Assembly: GCA_964658695.1 (NCBI GenBank)
Contig: CBAAAA010000001.1
Coordinates: 6,269 to 37,519 of the forward strand
Direction: 5' to 3'
DNA length: 31,251 nucleotides
Origin: an uncultured Solirubrobacteraceae bacterium
GTDB taxonomy: Bacteria; Acidobacteriota; Terriglobia; Bryobacterales; Bryobacteraceae
The notes under the pieces were generated by a model. It was not told the DNA's origin. It made no database searches and saw nothing but the letters and a program-made list of their open reading frames with translations. This document shows positions 1,483 to 15,532 of the stretch, one piece after another; positions within the stretch are counted from its first letter, which is position 1; every line of letters starts with the position of its first letter. The translations under genes were made by a program, and so were the position numbers.

Positions 1483-1556
1483 AGACACCTCAGATCTATT
1501 GTGCGTTATAACTGGGCGGCTGGAGTCCGGAAGGTTCTGGCCGACGGGTTTTGATT

Positions 1557-1616
1557 GAAGAAAAACGATTGAAACAGGTGGTCCGGCTTTATCGACCGCA
1601 AGCCGGACCTCCTGTT
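1557..1616 (-). terminator. Strong hairpin after secE, probable intrinsic terminator
   Basis: Arms aacagg-t-ggtccggctt (1573-1589) and aagccggacc-t-cctgtt (1600-1616): 16 bp with one mismatch and a 10-nt loop. Followed on the minus strand by UCAAUCGUUUUUCUU. Confidence 0.65.
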
Positions 1617-1626
1617 CCCGCAGGAA

Positions 1627-1881
1627 CTATCTGCCACCAACAAGCCGGTAAAAGAACACTGTTATGGCGTCCACGACGCGTATATAAACTGCCATGGAAA
1701 GAGCGAAAAAGAGAACAACGAAGGTGGTCTCGCGGATTTGATTCCAAGTCGGCCAAGCTACTTGTTTCATCTCCAACCGGACTTCTTTGAGGTATCGCTG
1801 AACTCTTCCGCCATCGCTGGCAGCGTCCTTCGCTTGCTCAATGGACGCAGATGTTTCAGCGGACGTTTTGTCCTCTGACAT
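1627..1881 (-). CDS. secE: Preprotein translocase subunit SecE (single-TM type), outside the canonical tRNA-Trp/nusG/rplK locus
   Basis: RYLKEVRLEMKQVAWPTWNQIRETTFVVLFFALSMAVYIRVVD matches the SecE signature E-x-K/R-x-V-x-W-P followed by a TM helix. SD GAAAGG (1891-1896) lies 9 nt before ATG 1881; TTG 1887 is the track's start. Confidence 0.85.
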   Translation of the reverse strand: MSEDKTSAETSASIEQAKDAASDGGRVQRYLKEVRLEMKQVAWPTWNQIRETTFVVLFFALSMAVYIRVVDAITVFFYRLVGGR

Positions 1882-1975
1882 ATCCAACGACCTTTCAAGC
1901 TTTATGTTTCAGTTCGAAAAGGTTCCACCCGGGCATGAGCAAGGTGCAAGCTTTTCGTTAACGGAATTGAAATGT

Positions 1976-2218
1976 TTAGGCCGGAGGTGCTCTATCGGGG
2001 GCGGCGGGAAAATAGGGTCCAGGAGCGGAACTTGCGCATCGATCGGGCGCCTGCTTTAGTCGAGCGCAAGCGATCAAGGGCGCAGACAACATCAGGAAGA
2101 CCGGAACGAGCAGGTCCACGGATGAGTCGTACGTAGTGAGGCAGCAGACCCCGAGTATCAGGATCAGGACCAGCAGCAGCAAGATGAACGATTTTCGTCT
2201 TGCGCGGTAGTGGCTCAT
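1976..2218 (-). CDS. 80-aa membrane peptide ending in RAPPA; candidate translation-arrest (monitoring) leader peptide for secE
   Basis: Basic N-region RARRK, hydrophobic FILLLLVLILILGV, second hydrophobic stretch LLVPVFLMLSAPLIA, Pro-rich linker, codons GAT AGA GCA CCT CCG GCC TAA (DRAPPA*). Ends 94 nt upstream of the secE ATG. Confidence 0.7.
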   Translation of the reverse strand: MSHYRARRKSFILLLLVLILILGVCCLTTYDSSVDLLVPVFLMLSAPLIACARLKQAPDRCASSAPGPYFPAAPDRAPPA

Positions 2219-2288
2219 GAGCAGTAGTTTACTGGATCGGTTTGAAGGGTGTTGTTGATGCCCGGTAAACTACTCGCGGACAACTTCT

Positions 2289-4844
2289 TTAAAGCCGTGG
2301 ATCGACAGGTTCGCTTTCGAGAGCCAAAACACCGAAGACACACTCGTGAACTCGGCGCAACGGCTCTTCCCGTACAAACCTTTCCAACGCTTCGAGCCCC
2401 AGAGCAAATTCGCGCAATGCGAGAGAGCGTTTCGTGCTTAAGTTGCGCTGTCGTAACCGCGTCAGGTTCTCTTCGTCTGCGTATTCAGGCCCGTATATGA
2501 TTCGAAGATATTCGCGTCCGCGGCATTTCAATGCGGGCTGCGCCAGATCCCGTCGTCCACGCTGGATGAAGTCAAGCGGCTTTATCACCATGCCTTCGCC
2601 GCCGCTGCTGGTCATTTCCTCCCACCAGTCAATGGCATCCTGCTCGCTTGCCGCATCCGCCAGGTCCACCTTCTTCCATTCAGTGGCCATTAGCAGATTG
2701 GCGTTTTGCGCGCAGAGCTTCGCGATCATTTCCATGTGCCATATATGGTTCTGATTGGAGTGAACAGCGCCCTGCGAAGCCAGCACATAGAAGGGCGCCA
2801 GACGGATATCCGCAATCGACTGAACCGGCCAGCAATAGCGACTGTAAGCTGTCACATAACGTGAAGCCGCCTCCTGCTTGTGGCGAAAGCGATCCGCGAG
2901 CGCCATTGCCTCAGGATTGAAGCTGGCTGCGGAATCGAGTGCCGCAATCACATACGGCAGAGAAGCGCGCGCCGCTGCGCCGGCCGGGGCATATTGATCA
3001 CGCAGCAATTCCTTTGATTTCACCGACCAGGGCATCAGCTCGCAATCGAGTGTCAACCAATCAGTATGCAGCTCTTCCCATAGGTTCGCTTGACTGATGG
3101 CGGCGTGAACACCCGATAGCAGCGCTCTCTCCAAAGACCCATCCCCGAAAAAGCGCCGGCCCGTGCGCGTGTAGCAGATTCCTATGCCTTCTCCGACCAT
3201 GCCAAAGCGCTTGCGAGCCGATGGTTCATCGCGACAGATACTGACGACTGCACGGGAACCCATATGCTTCCTTTCGCAGACCACGGAAGCAACGCCCTCG
3301 TTCCGGTAGTAACGAAACGCATCGTCGGGATACTCAAGATACCCTGTGCGGTGACTGGTCTCAGACGGCGACATGGTGGGCGGCAGATAGGTCAGCCATT
3401 TCGGATTCGCTGCAAAACGGCTCATCACTTCGAGAGCCGCGGCCGCGTTCTCCTCACGAATCGTCACCGCGCGATGGATCCGGGTAGTAATGATGCGCTT
3501 GCCGAGCACATCTTCAATCTCCAGCAGCTCATCTTCACGCTGCTGCGCACTTAGCGACGCGGTCTCTTCCGTCTTTGCAAAGCCCCGCAGCGGCTGATAG
3601 TAGGTGCGGAAGGCCGGAACCGAGACGAGCTCCTTTTCCGGGTAACGCAAGGCAGTCAGGCTGCCGCCGAATACACATCCGGTATCGATGTTGATGGTCC
3701 GGTTCAGCCACTCGGGCTCCGGCACTGGAGTGTGGCCGTAGACAACGGTGGCCTGTCCCCGATATCCGGCGGCCCAATTCAGTCTGACCGGCAGGCCCAG
3801 ATCATCCAGCTCGCCGGTTGTTTCTCCGTAGAGTGCAAAATCGCGAACCTTGGCCGATCCGCGTCCCTGCATTTCCTCCTTCATCCCGGCGTGCGCGACC
3901 ACCAGCTTGCCGTCATCCAGAACGTAGTGACTGACCAGGCCATCAAGAAAGACTGCAACGGCATCACGGAACTCGGCGCTTTCTTCCTGCAATTGTTCGA
4001 TCGACTCTGCAAGACCATGAGTAACCGGTCCCTCTTTGCCGCGAAGTTTCTTCACGAGTTTAAGATCGTGATTGCCCGGCACACAAAGGGCCAAGCCGGA
4101 TTGGACCATGCTCATCACCAGCTTCAAAACGGCTGGAATTTTGGGACCTCGATCGACCAGATCGCCGACAAAAACGGCTTTCCTTCCCGCCGGAGCACTC
4201 ACCTGGATCTGATCGTTCTCGATCTCAATCCGATAACCAAGGCGTTCCAGCAGCGTCACTAACTCGTCGTAACACCCATGCACATCGCCAATGAAGTCAA
4301 ACGGCCCGTGGTCGGATTTGCGATTATTCCAAAGCGGCTGACGCTCAATTTCAACTGAATCGATCTTCTCCGGGCTGTCGAGAATGTGTACATGACGGAA
4401 GCCTTCGCGCTCCAGATTGCGCAGGGATTGTTTCATCATCTGCGACTGGTTGCGGATCACGTGAGATCCAAAGTTTCGATCCGGGCGCTGGCGATTGCGG
4501 TCCGCACAAAGGTGTTCTGGAAGATTCAGAACGATGGCGACGGGAAGCACATGATATTCGCGCGCCAGATCCACTAACCGCTTGCGTCCTTCAGGCTGCA
4601 CGTTGGTGGCATCAACAACGGTCAAACGTCCGGATGCGAGCCGCCTGGCCGCGATGAAATGCAGAACCGCAAATGCGTCATTAGTTGCGGCCTGATCGTT
4701 CTCGTCATCGGACACGAGATACCGGCAGTAATCGGAGGACAGCACCTCGCTCCCTTTGAAATGCCGTCTTGCAAAGGTCGACTTACCGCTGCCCGATGGT
4801 CCGATTAGAATGACGAAGGACAATTCGGGGATCACCAACTTCAT
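2289..4844 (-). CDS. pnkp: Bacterial polynucleotide kinase-phosphatase-ligase (Pnkp), RNA repair
   Basis: P-loop GPSGSGKST and DATN (kinase). GDVHG, GDLVDRGP, GNHD, GHTP, DTGC (metallophosphoesterase). YLPPTMSP, KHMGSR, DCELMPW, GEGMVIKP, KCRGREYLRIIYG (adenylyltransferase). ATGA overlap with hen1. Confidence 0.95.
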   Translation of the reverse strand: MKLVIPELSFVILIGPSGSGKSTFARRHFKGSEVLSSDYCRYLVSDDENDQAATNDAFAVLHFIAARRLASGRLTVVDATNVQPEGRKRLVDLAREYHVLPVAIVLNLPEHLCADRNRQRPDRNFGSHVIRNQSQMMKQSLRNLEREGFRHVHILDSPEKIDSVEIERQPLWNNRKSDHGPFDFIGDVHGCYDELVTLLERLGYRIEIENDQIQVSAPAGRKAVFVGDLVDRGPKIPAVLKLVMSMVQSGLALCVPGNHDLKLVKKLRGKEGPVTHGLAESIEQLQEESAEFRDAVAVFLDGLVSHYVLDDGKLVVAHAGMKEEMQGRGSAKVRDFALYGETTGELDDLGLPVRLNWAAGYRGQATVVYGHTPVPEPEWLNRTINIDTGCVFGGSLTALRYPEKELVSVPAFRTYYQPLRGFAKTEETASLSAQQREDELLEIEDVLGKRIITTRIHRAVTIREENAAAALEVMSRFAANPKWLTYLPPTMSPSETSHRTGYLEYPDDAFRYYRNEGVASVVCERKHMGSRAVVSICRDEPSARKRFGMVGEGIGICYTRTGRRFFGDGSLERALLSGVHAAISQANLWEELHTDWLTLDCELMPWSVKSKELLRDQYAPAGAAARASLPYVIAALDSAASFNPEAMALADRFRHKQEAASRYVTAYSRYCWPVQSIADIRLAPFYVLASQGAVHSNQNHIWHMEMIAKLCAQNANLLMATEWKKVDLADAASEQDAIDWWEEMTSSGGEGMVIKPLDFIQRGRRDLAQPALKCRGREYLRIIYGPEYADEENLTRLRQRNLSTKRSLALREFALGLEALERFVREEPLRRVHECVFGVLALESEPVDPRL

Positions 4845-6223
4845 CGTTCAAAAACTCCCATCTGCGTAGGAGGGCCCACCATCGGGTCCTCGACGCCCAC
4901 AGGCAGGAAACGGACGTGATAGTCGAACCTCTCTCCAATACCGTTGGCCCAAGTCTGAAACTCTGACCTGGTCCATTCGAAACGATGATCGCGATGCCGC
5001 AAACGTCCTGCCGGCAGGGATTCGAAACAGTCGTTGTACTCGGCGTTCGGCGTAGTGATGATTACTGCACCTGGACGCGCATGTTTGAAAAGCACCTGTT
5101 CAAACGCAGCCAGTCGTGCGGGGTCCAGATGTTCAATCACCTCAATGACAGCCGCGGCATCGAATCCATTCAGACGCGCATCGCGGTAGAGAAGCGACCC
5201 ATGAATCAACTGAATGCGACTCCTCGCGGCCGGCGCCATTTGATCCAGGTGTAAGCCTTTAGACGCCTTCTCGAGCACGCGCCAGGAAACATCCATTCCA
5301 ACAATTCGTTCGAAGGCACGATCCTGCAAGAGCGGCCGCAACAACTTCCCTTCACCGCACCCAACATCCAGGACGCTCTTCGCCGTAATCGACTTCAAGA
5401 CAGAGAGAACAGTCCCGATGCGCTGCTCCCACAATTTCAGCGGCTCCTCGACTGCGATTTCTTCTTCCGGGGGGGATGCGTCGCTCTCTGCCGTGTCTTC
5501 TTCTGAGAGCCGCGAAAGAGCGCTGCTGGTCAGCTTGCGATCGTGGCGCAGGTATCGCGCGGTGATGCTGTCCCGTTCGGGGTGATTGGCCAGCCAGCCC
5601 TCGCCCTTTCGCAGCAGTTTCTCCACTTCATCCTCACCGACCCAGTAATGCTTCTCCGCATCCAACACCGGCACGAGGACATAGAGATGTGTCAACAAAT
5701 CCTGAAGGCGACAACGGTTCTTCAGACGAATGGTGCGGTGTGGTCCAATGCCCCACTCAGGAAAGTTCTCATCGAGCAGATAGCCGGTGGACTGCAGATC
5801 ATAGCCGAGGGGGTGAAAGAGCCGGTCCAAGTAGTCTGGTTCCGCTCTGCAAGGTACGGCGGTCACCACAGCTTCGAAATCCAGCACCTGATCCGCTAGC
5901 GCCTGCCTTTCCTTGCTGCGGCCGTTCATAGCCGTGCCAAATACATTCGAAAGCGCAACGCTGAGAAACGAAGAAGCCGCATAGGGCCGGTCATTCACGT
6001 ATTGCCGCAGTGATTCGTTCACTGCCTGCGAGCGTCCACGAACCAGTCCCACCGGATCCACATCAAGCAGCAGCGCCGCTTGTGATCGTTCCACACTCTG
6101 TTCAGGGTAGAAGACATGCGCTTTTCCGAACGGCAAGTCGAAATCGTGAATTCGCGCCGGGTTCTTGTGGAGCAGATATCCAAGGTCGGAGGTCGAGATG
6201 TCCGCGGCGATGGTGAGCAGCAC
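4841..6223 (-). CDS. hen1: 3'-terminal RNA ribose 2'-O-methyltransferase Hen1
   Basis: N-terminal MLLTI..DLGYLLHK.P..HVFYPE, YVNDRPYAASSFLSVAL, KHYWVGEDEVEKLL. MTase motifs VLDVGCGEG, EVIEHL, TTPNAEYN, RHRDHRFEWTR. GTG start. Confidence 0.95.
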   Translation of the reverse strand: MLLTIAADISTSDLGYLLHKNPARIHDFDLPFGKAHVFYPEQSVERSQAALLLDVDPVGLVRGRSQAVNESLRQYVNDRPYAASSFLSVALSNVFGTAMNGRSKERQALADQVLDFEAVVTAVPCRAEPDYLDRLFHPLGYDLQSTGYLLDENFPEWGIGPHRTIRLKNRCRLQDLLTHLYVLVPVLDAEKHYWVGEDEVEKLLRKGEGWLANHPERDSITARYLRHDRKLTSSALSRLSEEDTAESDASPPEEEIAVEEPLKLWEQRIGTVLSVLKSITAKSVLDVGCGEGKLLRPLLQDRAFERIVGMDVSWRVLEKASKGLHLDQMAPAARSRIQLIHGSLLYRDARLNGFDAAAVIEVIEHLDPARLAAFEQVLFKHARPGAVIITTPNAEYNDCFESLPAGRLRHRDHRFEWTRSEFQTWANGIGERFDYHVRFLPVGVEDPMVGPPTQMGVFER

Positions 6224-11352: not shown

Positions 11353-14300
11353 TTACCCTTCATTTCCGGTCTGGTTTTCCTCCTTGTTCAACAAGTGAAG
11401 GATCACACGAAACGGAACCGGCGCGAGGTCAGGCTTCTCACTGATGTCAGCCCGTACATCGAGCAATGAACGTTCCAGCAAGTAGTTGTCTAAAAGCACC
11501 TGCTGGTCCCCTTGGGTAGGAGGCATGTAGAGCGCTTGACCCGCCGTTTTCCAATAACCGCGGATAAACGCAGCGCTCATATGGGAGTACCAGAAACGCC
11601 CCCAGACCCGATAAGTCGCCGCATCCACCCTGCTGCGCATCTCGCTTTCGGCGAGGTGCCGGCCAGTGGTCAAGGTGGCATATCCGAACGAAAGGAGCAT
11701 GCTCGCGACATCGCGAAGCGGACATCGCTTGATCCGGCGTTCGCTGATATGAAGGCTCGGATCTCCTTCGAAATCGAAGATCGTAATGTCGTCGCCAGGG
11801 GTGACCAATAGATGGCCTAAATGAAGCCGGCCGTGAAAGCGGATTCGTACCGACGGAACACGCCGCTCGAAGATGGCCTTAAACTTCGTGACGATCGCGT
11901 CTTCCAGCTCAATGACCCGCGCCGCGGCTGCACGAACTTCAGGAGCCATATCGGTGTAACGCTGCCTGAGAAATTCGAGACGCCGTCCGGTGAGTGAAAT
12001 GTTGGCGTGATAAAGACCCTGGCGATAGAAGTCGTTGAAAACCTCTGGCGAGAATGCCGGATCGCCACTTCCATTGAGCAGGGTCAAATGCATCTCGGCT
12101 ACACGTTTGCCCGCGTTTTCCGCAAACTTCAGCGCTGGTCCAAGCAGGTCGATCGCCATCTGTGGCGGGTCTGGCAGGGCAAAATCCAGATTGTAAGCAC
12201 CGGCTGGCGAGGCCTTCAGAAAATCCGTCTTCGATAGCTTGCTTTCGTCAGCACGCTTCAGGAATGCATTCAGCTCATTCCGCGTGTAGCTCCAGCCGTC
12301 ACCATCGTGGGCAACATATCCGTGCAGTAGCCCCAGAACAGTTGTCTCTCCGTTCCGGGATTGGTATTCCATGGACCCGGCAAACGGAGCGGCATTTGGA
12401 AACGGATGGCGCTCGGTCAGGAACTCGCCAAACTCTACTCCGGGATGAACTCCTGCTTCCACTCTCCGCAGCAGCTTCATTACAAAACGATCGCCAAACT
12501 GGGTCGTGGTGTCGATCTCGGCAGAAGGAAGAACCTTGGGGGCGAGATTGGGATGCGTGTTGCCCCACAGCTGCCGGAAGTCACGATTTCGCAGCGCACT
12601 CAACACGCCCTGTTGCCCGTTAAACCGTTTGCGGCGTGCGAATGCTTCGAACAACGCACTGGAGAAGTCTTTATCGAGCGAGCCTTCGTACAGCAGCGCC
12701 TCAGCCCCGTTTGCCCACTTGACCTGCGCCACCAGATCCTCGGGATATTCCAGGCGGACTATCCTGGCCTCGTCGTTTTGTGCCAGTGAAATTGGCAGCG
12801 AGTAAGTTTCCGGGTCGCCGCTCGTGTACTCCGCACGAACCAGCAGAATTGATTTTCCGGCTTTCCCAATTGGAATTACTTCTCCGATGACGACTGACCG
12901 GAATCGCCGGTCCTTACTGTGGAACCAGGTCCGCGTGGTGAGAAAAGCGGGAAGCGCGCCCGCGATCACCGGCAAGTTAGCCGCATCCCACACGTCCCCG
13001 CCGTGCAGTGTTACCGTCGCCAACTCTCGCTCCTGCGATTCTATCGACGGCGCCGAGACAGTTACTGGAACTGCCCGCTGCTCCAATGAGAACCAGTAAA
13101 ACGAGTTTGGACCGAGCGTCAGTGAGTAGTAGGATTCTCCAACCGCCGGGAAGTCTGTTCTGCCGAACATCTCAACCGGTGTGTAGCCCTGATACTTATG
13201 CAGATCCAGCTGCACCGGTTGTGCAAACCGGGACAAATTTGCGATCACCAGGATGGTCTCTTCCTGGTAGCGCCGGAAGTAGACAATCACTCGCTGATTC
13301 GAAGGATACAGGAACTCCAGCGTGCCACGTCCGAAGGCTTTGTACTGTTTTCGGAGAGCGATCAAACGCTTGGTCCAGTTCAACAACGAGTGCGGATTGT
13401 CCTGCTGCGCTTCCACATTGATCGCTTCATAGTGGTAAGCGGGATCGATGTTCACCGGCAGGTATAACCGCTGAGGATTGGTGCTGGAAAAACCGGCGTT
13501 CCGGTCCGGGCTCCATTGCATGGGCGTGCGGACGCCATTCCGGTCGCCCAGATAGACGTTGTCGCCCATGCCGATTTCGTCGCCATAGTAGATGACGGGC
13601 GTTCCCGGCATGGAGAACAACAAAGCGTTCATCACCTCAATGCGCGGCCGGTCATTTTGCAGCAGCGGAGCCAGCCGGCGCCGGATACCGAGATTGATTC
13701 GTGCACGAACGTCAGAGGCGTACATCCGGTACATGTAATCGCGCTCCTCGTCCGTGACCATTTCCAGCGTCAGTTCGTCGTGGTTGCGCAGGAACATCGC
13801 CCATTGACAGGTCTCGGGAAGCGTAGGAGTGCGGTTGAGAATCTCGACAATCGGCAGCCTGTCTTCCAGCCGCAGCGCCATAAACAGCCGTGGCATCAGC
13901 GGGAAATGGAAGTTCATATGGCATTCATCGCCATTGCCCATATAGGCCACCGCATCTTCGGGCCACATGTTGGCTTCGGAAAGCAGCAGCCGGTTGGGAA
14001 ACCGCTCGTCTAAATGCCGCCGCAGTTCTTTCAGGAAGGCATGCGTCTCAGGCAAGTTTTCGCAGCTGGTCCCTTCCCGCTCGAACAGGTACGGAATAGC
14101 GTCCAGCCGAAAGCCATCCACGCCCATCTCCGCCCAGAAGTCGAGTAAGTGCATCACCGAACGCTGCACGAGCGGATTATCGAAGTTCAGATCCGGCTGG
14201 TGAGAGAAGAATCGATGCCAGTAGTAAGCCTTGGCTACCGGATCCCAGCTCCAGTTAGAGGGTTCAAAGTCCTTGAAGATAATGCGGGTGCCGGCATACT

Positions 14301-14736
14301 TGTCGGGGGTATCGCTCCAGACGTAGAAATCACGCCATCTTGATCCCGGTTCCGCCCTGCGCGACTTCTGAAACCACTCATGCTGGTCTGAGGTATGGTT
14401 AATGACCAACTCCGTGATGACCCGCAGTCCACGCCGGTGCGCTTCTTTCAAGAAGAGCTGGAAGTCTTTTAAGGTGCCATACGAAGGATGAACGCTTCGA
14501 AAGTCTGCGATGTCATACCCGTCATCTTTCCAGGGCGAAGGAAAAAATGGCAGCAACCAGATTGCCGTGACGCCAAGGTCCTCCAGGTAGTCCAGCTTTT
14601 GAGCCAGACCCTTGAAGTCCCCCATTCCGTCACCATTGCTGTCATAAAAGGCGCGCACGTGCGCCTCATAAATTATTGCGTCTTTGTACCAGAGAGGGTC
14701 ATTTTCCAACCCGCTGAGCGTTTGCGGCTGATGCAT
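11353..14736 (-). CDS. treS: Trehalose synthase (maltose alpha-D-glucosyltransferase, GH13) fused to a C-terminal maltokinase-like domain
   Basis: WYKDAIIYE.HVRAFYDSNGDGMGDF, ELVINHTSDQH, FRLDAIPYL, LLSEAN, FLRNHDELTLEMVT intact. The C-terminal half has Mak-like DFEGDP..ERRIKRCPLRDVASML.SF. Start overlaps the otsB end by 38 nt, so the exact start is uncertain. Confidence 0.93.
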   Translation of the reverse strand: MHQPQTLSGLENDPLWYKDAIIYEAHVRAFYDSNGDGMGDFKGLAQKLDYLEDLGVTAIWLLPFFPSPWKDDGYDIADFRSVHPSYGTLKDFQLFLKEAHRRGLRVITELVINHTSDQHEWFQKSRRAEPGSRWRDFYVWSDTPDKYAGTRIIFKDFEPSNWSWDPVAKAYYWHRFFSHQPDLNFDNPLVQRSVMHLLDFWAEMGVDGFRLDAIPYLFEREGTSCENLPETHAFLKELRRHLDERFPNRLLLSEANMWPEDAVAYMGNGDECHMNFHFPLMPRLFMALRLEDRLPIVEILNRTPTLPETCQWAMFLRNHDELTLEMVTDEERDYMYRMYASDVRARINLGIRRRLAPLLQNDRPRIEVMNALLFSMPGTPVIYYGDEIGMGDNVYLGDRNGVRTPMQWSPDRNAGFSSTNPQRLYLPVNIDPAYHYEAINVEAQQDNPHSLLNWTKRLIALRKQYKAFGRGTLEFLYPSNQRVIVYFRRYQEETILVIANLSRFAQPVQLDLHKYQGYTPVEMFGRTDFPAVGESYYSLTLGPNSFYWFSLEQRAVPVTVSAPSIESQERELATVTLHGGDVWDAANLPVIAGALPAFLTTRTWFHSKDRRFRSVVIGEVIPIGKAGKSILLVRAEYTSGDPETYSLPISLAQNDEARIVRLEYPEDLVAQVKWANGAEALLYEGSLDKDFSSALFEAFARRKRFNGQQGVLSALRNRDFRQLWGNTHPNLAPKVLPSAEIDTTTQFGDRFVMKLLRRVEAGVHPGVEFGEFLTERHPFPNAAPFAGSMEYQSRNGETTVLGLLHGYVAHDGDGWSYTRNELNAFLKRADESKLSKTDFLKASPAGAYNLDFALPDPPQMAIDLLGPALKFAENAGKRVAEMHLTLLNGSGDPAFSPEVFNDFYRQGLYHANISLTGRRLEFLRQRYTDMAPEVRAAAARVIELEDAIVTKFKAIFERRVPSVRIRFHGRLHLGHLLVTPGDDITIFDFEGDPSLHISERRIKRCPLRDVASMLLSFGYATLTTGRHLAESEMRSRVDAATYRVWGRFWYSHMSAAFIRGYWKTAGQALYMPPTQGDQQVLLDNYLLERSLLDVRADISEKPDLAPVPFRVILHLLNKEENQTGNEG

Positions 14737-15532
14737 TCGGTTTCGCGTGAGTTAACCAGCTGAGGAAGTGCGCGACGGATTGAACATCGGGCAGTACAAA
14801 CTGCGCACGTGTTCCGGCGGCGGGAACTCCCCCGACTTTGATAGTAATCCCTTGCGGAATTGCGGCAATCGCATCTTCGGTTGTGACATCGTCACCTATA
14901 TAGATAGGAAGCGTCGAAGCCGGTAACACTTCCCTTAAAAGCCATTTCAGCGCATGGGCTCTGTCCCACTCCAGCCGGGGCTGAATTTCGACTACTTTTC
15001 TGCCTTCCTGCGCCGTGAACGACTGGTATTTACCGGCGATGTCGAGCGCCGTGTCCCGAACCCAGTTCTGGAGATCGTCGTGGACGCGGCGATAATGTAC
15101 CGACAGAGTCAAGCTTTTATCTTCAATCTCCACACCCTCAAGGTCGTCGATCGCCAGCTTCAGCTGCAACGAAACGCATTTGAGCTCCCGTCGCAATGCC
15201 TCGGCTTCCGGCTCGCGGAAGCGCGTCTCCCCAGCTTCGATCTCCAATCCGTGATTGCCGACATAGATTAGTCCATGGATCGCGGTTTTCGTTCTCAGAT
15301 CAGCCAACGAACGTCCGCTGATTACGGCAACCGTGAAATCCGGTCTACTCGCCAGCGCCTGGAAAAGCTGCCGAATTCGCGGATCCAGCTGTGCCTCAGA
15401 AGGAACCTCGACGATCGGCGAAACGGTTCCGTCGAAATCGGTGAACAACGCAATGTGCGGTGCTGTAGAAACCCGGTCTCTAAGCGCATCGAAAAGCTCG
15501 GAAGAAGTGTGTGTCGAATATTCGCTGGTCAT
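14699..15532 (-). CDS. otsB: Trehalose-6-phosphate phosphatase-like HAD protein
   Basis: LFTDFDGTVSP (motif I), VISGRS (motif II), YVGNHGLE, KSLTLSVHYR, GRKVVEIQP, YIGDD. Motifs III and IV are atypical (see findings). Confidence 0.8.
   Translation of the reverse strand: MTSEYSTHTSSELFDALRDRVSTAPHIALFTDFDGTVSPIVEVPSEAQLDPRIRQLFQALASRPDFTVAVISGRSLADLRTKTAIHGLIYVGNHGLEIEAGETRFREPEAEALRRELKCVSLQLKLAIDDLEGVEIEDKSLTLSVHYRRVHDDLQNWVRDTALDIAGKYQSFTAQEGRKVVEIQPRLEWDRAHALKWLLREVLPASTLPIYIGDDVTTEDAIAAIPQGITIKVGGVPAAGTRAQFVLPDVQSVAHFLSWLTHAKPNASAANAQRVGK

Follow-up and report, generated by a model that had tools for sequence, protein, structure and literature searches.

An 80-codon upstream open reading frame (uORF) in an uncultured member of the Bryobacteraceae (Acidobacteriota) probably encodes a nascent-chain sensor of the RAPP class, which would control in cis the gene immediately downstream, a divergent paralog of the translocon subunit SecE (here called SecE2). 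Both genes lie on the minus strand of a 31,251-nucleotide stretch of contig CBAAAA010000001.1 (assembly GCA_964658695.1, positions 6,269 to 37,519), hereafter referred to as the window. The uORF (1976..2218) starts with an ATG at 2218, is coding from 2218 to 1979 and ends with a stop codon at 1978..1976; its product is MSHYRARRKSFILLLLVLILILGVCCLTTYDSSVDLLVPVFLMLSAPLIACARLKQAPDRCASSAPGPYFPAAPDRAPPA. The product begins with a basic stretch, MSHYRARRK (net charge +2), followed by two hydrophobic segments at residues ~8-30 (2129..2197) and ~33-52 (2063..2122), which are separated by a very short polar loop, and by a 28-residue tail that ends in PYFPAAPDRAPPA-stop, that is, R76-A77-P78-P79-A80-stop. 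The topology is judged solely from a Kyte-Doolittle hydropathy scan: the first segment is a putative N-in signal-anchor, and with the second, which is predicted to lead the chain back into the cytoplasm, it would form an N-in/C-in hairpin. The likely start codon of secE2 (84 codons plus stop, 1627..1881) is the ATG at 1881 (1879-1881), with a Shine-Dalgarno sequence, GAAAGG (1891..1896), 9 nucleotides before it, and the spacer between the two genes is exactly 94 nucleotides long (1882..1975). The initial annotation of this stretch had described the same arrangement, and its account of an 80-residue ORF with a basic N-region, two hydrophobic segments and a C-terminal RAPP, 94 nucleotides before a secE gene, is correct throughout. 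It had placed the end of the second hydrophobic segment about 25 residues before RAPP, and the measured distances are 24 residues to R76 and 26 residues to P78.

The uORF and secE2 form a linked cassette with a consistent anatomy and conservation pattern, the second gene of which is a SecE paralog. We found the cassette at 20 loci with available DNA and at one further locus known from a gene table only, and all of its hosts are Bryobacteraceae or Bryobacterales metagenome-assembled genomes (MAGs) or soil metagenomes. An ORF with transmembrane (TM) segments and a RAPP motif is present in all 20 SecE2 loci that have upstream DNA, without exception, bearing out the conservation upstream of homologous secE paralogs that had been proposed from the sequence of the window. 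None of the 29 canonical secE loci (0/29) has such an ORF. Among 122 genomes of the genus, including that of the window, homologues of the uORF were found in four others (G010, G065, G068, and G081), directly 5′ of a SecE that is 49-53% identical to SecE2 of the window; one of the 122 genomes (G057) is unpublished and contributes only a uORF negative and a canonical SecE match. A profile search of 5.8 billion proteins yielded 13 homologues of the uORF, one of them named 'Bryobacteraceae bacterium', and in all of the 11 contigs that were looked up (11/11) an 84-residue SecE gene lies 22-94 nucleotides 3′ of the homologue. A metagenome scan with the SecE2 alignment added four further loci, with the uORF in each. 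The most divergent SecE2 (P0053, locus L096, 38% identity) is preceded by an 80-codon ORF ending in PYLPAAPGRAPPRKA-stop, which is absent from the gene calls and was recovered from the DNA. The genes that flank the cassette differ at nearly every locus, and therefore the two-gene cassette is the unit of inheritance. At seven loci (L040, L042, L048, L052, L053, L056, and L058), genes for PadR and/or large duplicated permeases of the MacB_PCD/FtsX type stand beside the cassette; this neighborhood may be due to chance, since such permease genes are perhaps common in these genomes.

Wider searches, each of 401 genomes, found no further true members of the cassette family in the order or in the phylum and returned only the already known G010 in the taxonomic family, and a pattern scan of the genomes of 185,579 species returned only three Bryobacterales/Bryobacteraceae MAGs that were already known. 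One weak match (L047) is unrelated and was rejected as a member of the cassette family. The neighbors of the query in the ESM Atlas are unnamed Acidobacteriota clusters, which are uninformative. We also scanned the assembly of the window (4.83 Mb, 652 contigs, 77.5% complete) in six frames for ORFs of 40-220 residues with an N-terminal hydrophobic segment and RAPP, RGPP, RAPG, or RAGP within 15 residues of the end, and the uORF of the window was the sole ORF of its kind. RAPP is under-represented in the long reading frames of the assembly, with an observed/expected ratio by composition of 0.41, versus 1.31 for AAPP, in agreement with the published avoidance of the motif (PMC12992588). The uORF might also be regarded as a chance frame in the spacer, untranslated and without function, given that it is uncalled in several assemblies (e.g., L096) and has no Pfam match at E ≤ 0.01. 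However, a frame that stays open at a constant length across 20 loci, substitutions of the coding type, and its uniqueness in the genome speak against chance. The conservation data already contradict this explanation, to which we give almost no probability.

A second, more distant group of metagenome ORFs (P0069-P0082) has an N-terminal TM segment and a second hydrophobic stretch; LPAAPDRAPP is invariant in the group, and the tails behind it vary (e.g., ..QTVLSV). The sizes of their contigs agree with none of those of the SecE2 matches except for the pair P0079 and P0028, both of 939 nucleotides, which come from different sources and are likely a coincidence. These ORFs may therefore control other genes.

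Selection on the uORF is strongest at its end. Among 15 loci that were aligned by codon, the R, A, P, and P of RAPP are invariant and are encoded by 4, 4, 3, and 4 synonymous codons, respectively, and P71 and P74 are invariant as well. Across 20 sequences, P71, R76, A77, P78, and P79 are invariant. The ratio of nonsynonymous to synonymous change (pN/pS) is ~0.02 for RAPP, where no amino acid change is seen, and the purifying selection that had been suggested for the RAPP codons is thereby borne out. The ratio is 0.19 for the 12-residue motif PYxPAAPDRAPP (P68-Y-F-P-A-A-P-D-R-A-P-P79 in the window, 1982..2017, with the RAPP core at 1982-1993) and 0.70 for the linker. Conservation stops at RAPP: the ORF ends 1-13 codons later, and the tails are unrelated to one another (A, L, AR, VR, LQS, AKS, VQI, RKA, ANQTA, or one of 13 residues). 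In the linker, the sequence is variable, and the length is constant within one residue. By the hydropathy scan, each homologue starts with a basic N-terminus, which precedes a pair of ~20-residue hydrophobic segments separated by a polar loop of 2-8 residues. The end of the first segment (TM1) is 47-51 residues from the proline predicted to occupy the P site in all homologues, and the end of the second (TM2) is 23-30, mostly 26-27, residues from it. An invariant stall module combined with a free tail and a spacer of fixed length is the pattern expected of a nascent-chain arrest element, and not that of a docking motif.

The same data bear on the possibility that the finished 80-residue peptide persists as a stable two-helix membrane protein and partners SecE2, perhaps by joining a SecY-SecE2 channel as an accessory subunit. 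The proline-rich C-terminus would then act as protein, RAPP would be incidental or merely slow the ribosome, and the two genes would just be co-expressed. The N-terminal two-thirds of the product is moderately constrained (pN/pS of 0.43-0.52 in the hydrophobic regions), K9, the LLLVL core of the first segment, G23, C25, and P39 in the second segment are invariant, and the gene pair is strictly co-inherited, all of which would be in keeping with such a protein. However, constraint is strongest in the 12-residue C-terminal motif and breaks off at RAPP, with tails that vary in both length and sequence, and a docking motif is unlikely to tolerate 1-13 added residues. Moreover, RAPP is avoided both in proteomes generally (PMC12992588) and in the genome of the window. 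A complex prediction of the uORF peptide with SecE2 gave a score of 0.01, which counts neither for nor against binding. We consider an accessory protein unlikely.

Elongation arrest at the motif is predicted by analogy, from the identity of the motif with those of ApdA and ApdP. RAPP has been described as a robust arrest module that is resistant to elongation factor P across varied contexts (PMC12992588). By the position seen in the structures of ApdA and ApdP (PMC10951233), the codon of P78 (1985-1987) would occupy the P site and that of P79 (1982-1984) the A site. Four sequence criteria have been used in published screens (Sakiyama et al. 2021; Fujiwara et al. 2024), namely a small unannotated uORF of a sec or yidC gene, an N-terminal signal or TM segment, a conserved C-terminus, and a spacer of >30 (2024) or >40 (2021) residues. 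The uORF has all four when the spacer is counted from TM1; counted from TM2, part of which would not yet have left the tunnel, it is too short (23-30 residues). The fixed spacer and the geometry of a two-TM hairpin are consistent with a putative arrest that is cancelled by membrane insertion or export.

It is also conceivable that the uORF is a RAPP arrest peptide that answers another cue, such as redox state or a metal sensed by Cys at the periplasmic end of TM1, comparable to the copper-sensing RAPP leaders CruR and CutF. C25 is nearly invariant and is usually followed by a second Cys, further Cys residues are common in the linker, and RAPP uORFs are known to precede genes of many functions (PMC12992588). 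In another genus of the same family (L100), a weakly similar 77-residue ORF with two hydrophobic segments (L100:1474-1707, plus strand) ends in SRAPPIA-stop ~170 nucleotides upstream of a gene for a DUF3738 protein (L100:1880-2974, plus strand); this ORF is possibly a further RAPP leader, one whose target lies outside the Sec system. Nevertheless, the uORF has no match to DUF2946 or any other Pfam family and contains no CxxC or His cluster, and the gene that it would regulate encodes a translocon subunit rather than a metal or redox protein. In topology and in the fixed spacer, the uORF agrees with the published descriptions of insertion monitors (PMC10987492 and PMC7897499). A response to such a different cue seems to us rather improbable.

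The product of secE2 matches the Pfam family SecE (SecE/Sec61-gamma, PF00584) at 48.1 bits, compared with a cut-off of 22.7. It retains the amphipathic-helix signature RLEMxxVxWPxW and the C-terminal TM segment, and its core is under purifying selection (pN/pS of 0.25-0.32). The 14 SecE2 sequences in a maximum-likelihood tree group together with a support of 100/100, set apart by a stem of 2.16 substitutions per site from the 29 canonical SecE sequences of the order. The separation is also evident in the 5.8-billion-protein database, where ~40 SecE2 clusters, nearly all of 84 residues, score at least 99 bits and canonical SecE scores at most 81 bits, leaving a gap between the two. Canonical SecE is present alongside SecE2 in G010, G065, G068, and G081, and in G010 the canonical copy lies in tuf-secE-nusG-rplK. 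The idea of a spare SecE is thus upheld by the separate clade and by the coexistence of SecE2 with a canonical copy and a single SecY in these four genomes. Since each of them has one SecY only, SecE2 is without a dedicated SecY2, and a search for a SecY2 partner in these four SecY-bearing genomes found none. Given the single SecY in these genomes, SecE2 would be its alternative or additional partner, made on induction.

In the window, secE2 lies outside the canonical position (tuf / tRNA-Trp - secE - nusG - rplK). It was called an orphan in the initial annotation, and indeed its neighbors are a Pnkp/Hen1 pair upstream and an enoyl-CoA hydratase gene downstream, with tuf, nusG, and rplK not adjoining. 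Together with the separate clade, this non-canonical neighborhood identifies the gene of the window as the paralog SecE2. Neither canonical secE, SecY, nor canonical nusG was found in the assembly of the window, which is 77.5% complete. The missing canonical secE is an assembly gap and no sign that SecE2 is the sole SecE. The only NusG-family gene in this assembly encodes a 177-residue paralog and does not lie beside secE (L008, G000 contig C283).

RNA folding points to a way in which a stall at the end of the uORF could act on secE2. The 94-nucleotide spacer is structured and contains an inner hairpin, both in the local fold and in the consensus of a six-locus subgroup. The local fold of positions 1876-1996 (minus strand), from the D75 codon to secE2 codon 2, has a free energy of −33.1 kcal/mol (z = −2.24). 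In this fold, GAUA (D75/R76) pairs with UGUC of the secE2 start region, and CGGCCU (P79/A80/stop) pairs with AGGUCG of the Shine-Dalgarno region, enclosing the inner hairpin. The Shine-Dalgarno sequence of secE2, TTGAAAGGT, is invariant across 11 aligned loci. The consensus of the six-locus subgroup comprises 35 pairs, of which 7 are compensatory (z = −5.5 in alignment shuffles; none of 300 shuffles was as good). In its helix, the codons of D-R-A-P-P (the GAYA/GCNCCGCC arm) pair with GGUGG...AUGUC, the region of the stop codon pairs just 5′ of the Shine-Dalgarno sequence, and compensatory changes are found in the inner hairpin. The footprint of a ribosome with P78 in the P site would span all of the 5′ arms. 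When a 30-nucleotide footprint was blocked in a local partition-function model, the accessibility of the ribosome-binding site (RBS) of secE2 in the window increased from 0.34 to 0.56, and its mean over 19 loci from 0.37 to 0.45-0.48 (Wilcoxon P = 0.003-0.008, an overstated significance because the loci are related). A putative switch between arrest codons and RBS is well supported in one subgroup and in the window and is not universal, and unmasking of the RBS would be the likeliest coupling in the window and its closest relatives. As for other modes of control, Rho-dependent attenuation is not indicated, the spacers being without C-over-G bias, and neither is intrinsic attenuation, the inner hairpin being without a U-tract.

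The cassette seems to carry its own promoter. In the window, the −10-like hexamer TAAACT (2226..2231, minus strand) lies 7 nucleotides 5′ of the uORF ATG. A TAnnnT hexamer (consensus GAGTACACTAC, i.e., TACACT) was found 6-8 nucleotides 5′ of the uORF start codon, which is ATG or GTG, at all 20 loci (L039-L096 and the window). There is no Shine-Dalgarno sequence between the hexamer and the uORF start at these loci, and the sequence farther upstream is not conserved. The hexamer is probably the −10 box of the cassette's own promoter, and the mRNA would be leaderless, or nearly so, at the uORF. At the other end, a long GC-rich hairpin with a U-rich tail (1556..1621, minus strand; −33.1 kcal/mol, z = −4.23) follows secE2 and is the probable end of the transcript. 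The terminator that the initial annotation had placed right after secE is supported by this hairpin and its tail and was not called by a simple promoter and terminator scan of the window, which returned no canonical sites at all.

We propose the following course of events. The cassette would be transcribed from its own −10-like box, probably as a leaderless mRNA. When ...P-D-R-A-P78 is in the P site and Pro79-tRNA in the A site, formation of the peptide bond would fail, as has been seen structurally in ApdA and ApdP (PMC10951233). At this stall, segment 1 would be ~48 residues away from the peptidyl-transferase center and exposed, and segment 2 would be ~26 residues away and just leaving the tunnel. 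If SecYEG and/or YidC engage the two-helix hairpin, the resulting pull would free the stall, and the ribosome would complete the last one or two codons and depart. If insertion capacity is short, the ribosome would stay at the 3′ end of the uORF. The codons that it covers there would, when the mRNA is free, pair with the Shine-Dalgarno sequence and start region of secE2, so that a parked ribosome would hold the secE2 site open and SecE2 would be made. In this scheme, stalling, its relief by pulling, and the switching on of SecE2 are inferences from the sequence pattern. We put forward only tentatively, with somewhat less than even confidence, the more specific view that a two-helix substrate of the YidC type reports failing insertion and induces an alternative SecE for the single SecY, which would make it the first monitor of the SecYEG core.

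Several observations weigh against the proposed sensor. The end of TM2 is only ~26 residues from the stall site, which is under the >30-40-residue exposure rule of the published screens, and therefore TM1 alone can be placed outside the ribosome with certainty. There is also fair conservation in the N-terminal half, where TM1 ends in a Cys (usually Cys-Cys), and this conservation could reflect a function of the finished peptide. The local folds are no better than shuffled sequences in about half of the loci (L041, L042, L048, L050, L056, L058, L067, and L068), an 11-locus MAFFT alignment gave no significant consensus structure, and the arrest site is the top partner of the RBS in just 6 of the 19 loci. 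With 150 nucleotides of upstream context, blocking the footprint gave no mean gain in RBS accessibility. The sequencing runs that hold the stretch are DNA runs from one moss-metagenome study, with no RNA runs among them. The family is restricted to one genus-level group of uncultured Bryobacteraceae. Moreover, the uORF of G068 (L042) has a TGA at codon 4 (MRH*, L042:1504-1515) in front of an intact secE2, and secE2 of L055 (L055:1187-1440) has an apparent frameshift after ~50 codons; this damage could be decay or assembly errors.

Some of these points would suit a constitutive RAPP pause, which would set a fixed low level of secE2 translation or protect a short leaderless mRNA, with no feedback from insertion. 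In line with such a pause, the RNA switch is weak or absent at several loci, and RAPP is described as able to arrest robustly without a special upstream context (PMC12992588). On the other hand, a constitutive pause would need neither two hydrophobic segments nor a linker of conserved length, and all homologues keep both. We regard this explanation as improbable, and we continue to favor a RAPP-class sensor that controls secE2 in cis.

The surroundings of the cassette in the window contain further gene clusters. Directly upstream, on the same strand, are the genes for the RNA-repair pair Pnkp (kinase-phosphatase-ligase, 851 residues) and Hen1 (460 residues), at 2289-6223 (minus strand). The Pnkp gene is complete, and the stop and start of the two genes overlap. 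Farther away (11353-15532, minus strand), the gene for an alpha-amylase/maltokinase fusion (TreS-Mak-like, 1127 residues) overlaps a trehalose-phosphatase gene, and the two constitute a trehalose-metabolism cluster.

The initial annotation knew of no characterised arrest peptide that controls secE, and the literature searched agrees with it. Sakiyama et al. (2021) inspected the regions upstream of secE in 449 species and reported only ApcA, ApdA, and ApdP (PMC7897499), and the screen of Fujiwara et al. (2024) covered the regions upstream of secA, secDF, and yidC only (PMC10987492). The term 'SecE' is absent from the main texts and the examined supplements of PMC10987492 and of the proteome-wide RAPP study of 2025 (PMC12992588), and full-text literature searches for paralogs of secE, or for monitoring substrates linked to it, gave no relevant result. 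An arrest peptide linked to secE is thus new within the literature searched. The characterised monitors of secretion and insertion all control paralogs of SecA, SecDF, or YidC, none is known for a subunit of SecYEG, and bacterial SecE paralogs are essentially undescribed. If our proposal is true, the channel core is also under nascent-chain feedback, and a second, inducible SecE is maintained alongside one SecY in some Acidobacteria. Bacteria would then remodel the composition of the translocon core under stress, beyond the accessory factors SecA, SecDF, and YidC. This would be a further recruitment of the RAPP module, here to a new phylum and to a probably leaderless two-gene unit with an 80-codon leader. 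The cassette is compact enough for transfer as a whole to E. coli or to a cell-free system. Searches that combine motif and context upstream of secE, secY, and secG, which were outside the genome-wide screen of 2024, can still yield new regulators.

The cassette can be compared with several groups of known systems. Like ApdP of Sinorhizobium medicae and ApdA of Amycolatopsis japonica, the uORF is small, lies directly 5′ of the gene for a secondary paralog of a Sec component, and has an N-terminal hydrophobic targeting segment and a C-terminal R-A-P-P within a few codons of the stop. It differs from them in its target, a SecE paralog instead of SecDF2 (PMC7897499), in its two TM segments with N-in/C-in topology instead of a cleavable signal or a single N-in/C-out anchor, in its length (80 residues versus 128 and 140), in its occurrence in Acidobacteriota, and in its probably leaderless mRNA, and no sequence homology to them was detected. 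With ApcA of Actinobacteria and MifM of Bacillus subtilis, both of which precede yidC2 (YidC2 being the target of ApcA; PMC7897499), and with CliM/uC_KYxIW, the uORF shares one or two N-terminal TM segments with a cytosolic C-terminus, a very short extracytoplasmic part, a spare paralog as the target, and a short spacer of low variability between TM segment and arrest site. Such a spacer is a mark of insertion monitors of the YidC type (Fujiwara et al. 2024; PMC10987492). In topology, the uORF appears to resemble these monitors (ApcA and MifM) more than the monitors of Sec export. Unlike ApcA (RAPG), MifM (multi-site arrest), and KYxIW, it has the motif RAPP, and the gene downstream is secE2 and not yidC2.

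SecM, which precedes secA, and VemP, which precedes secDF2, would share with the uORF a force-released stall near its end that disrupts an mRNA helix and opens the next RBS. Those two are exported, with cleavable signals, long spacers (medians of ~71-133 residues), and other arrest sequences (RAGP in SecM). As in ApcA, ApdA, ApdP, MifM, and VemP, the downstream gene is a secondary paralog. The RQH family and the orphan RAPP/RGPP uORFs (PMC10987492 and PMC12992588) resemble the uORF family in showing the same four screening criteria and a patchy, narrow distribution. The metal-sensing RAPP leaders CruR/CutF are likewise small membrane or exported leaders with a C-terminal RAPP that control the next gene, as the uORF would. 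Unlike them, the uORF has no DUF2946, adjacent Cys-Cys only, no CxxC or His site, and a target that is not related to metals. As far as its sequence tells, the cassette appears to join a topology like that of ApcA and MifM to a motif of the ApdA/ApdP kind. Both its proposed target, a SecE paralog, and its phylum, Acidobacteriota (Bryobacteraceae), would be new.

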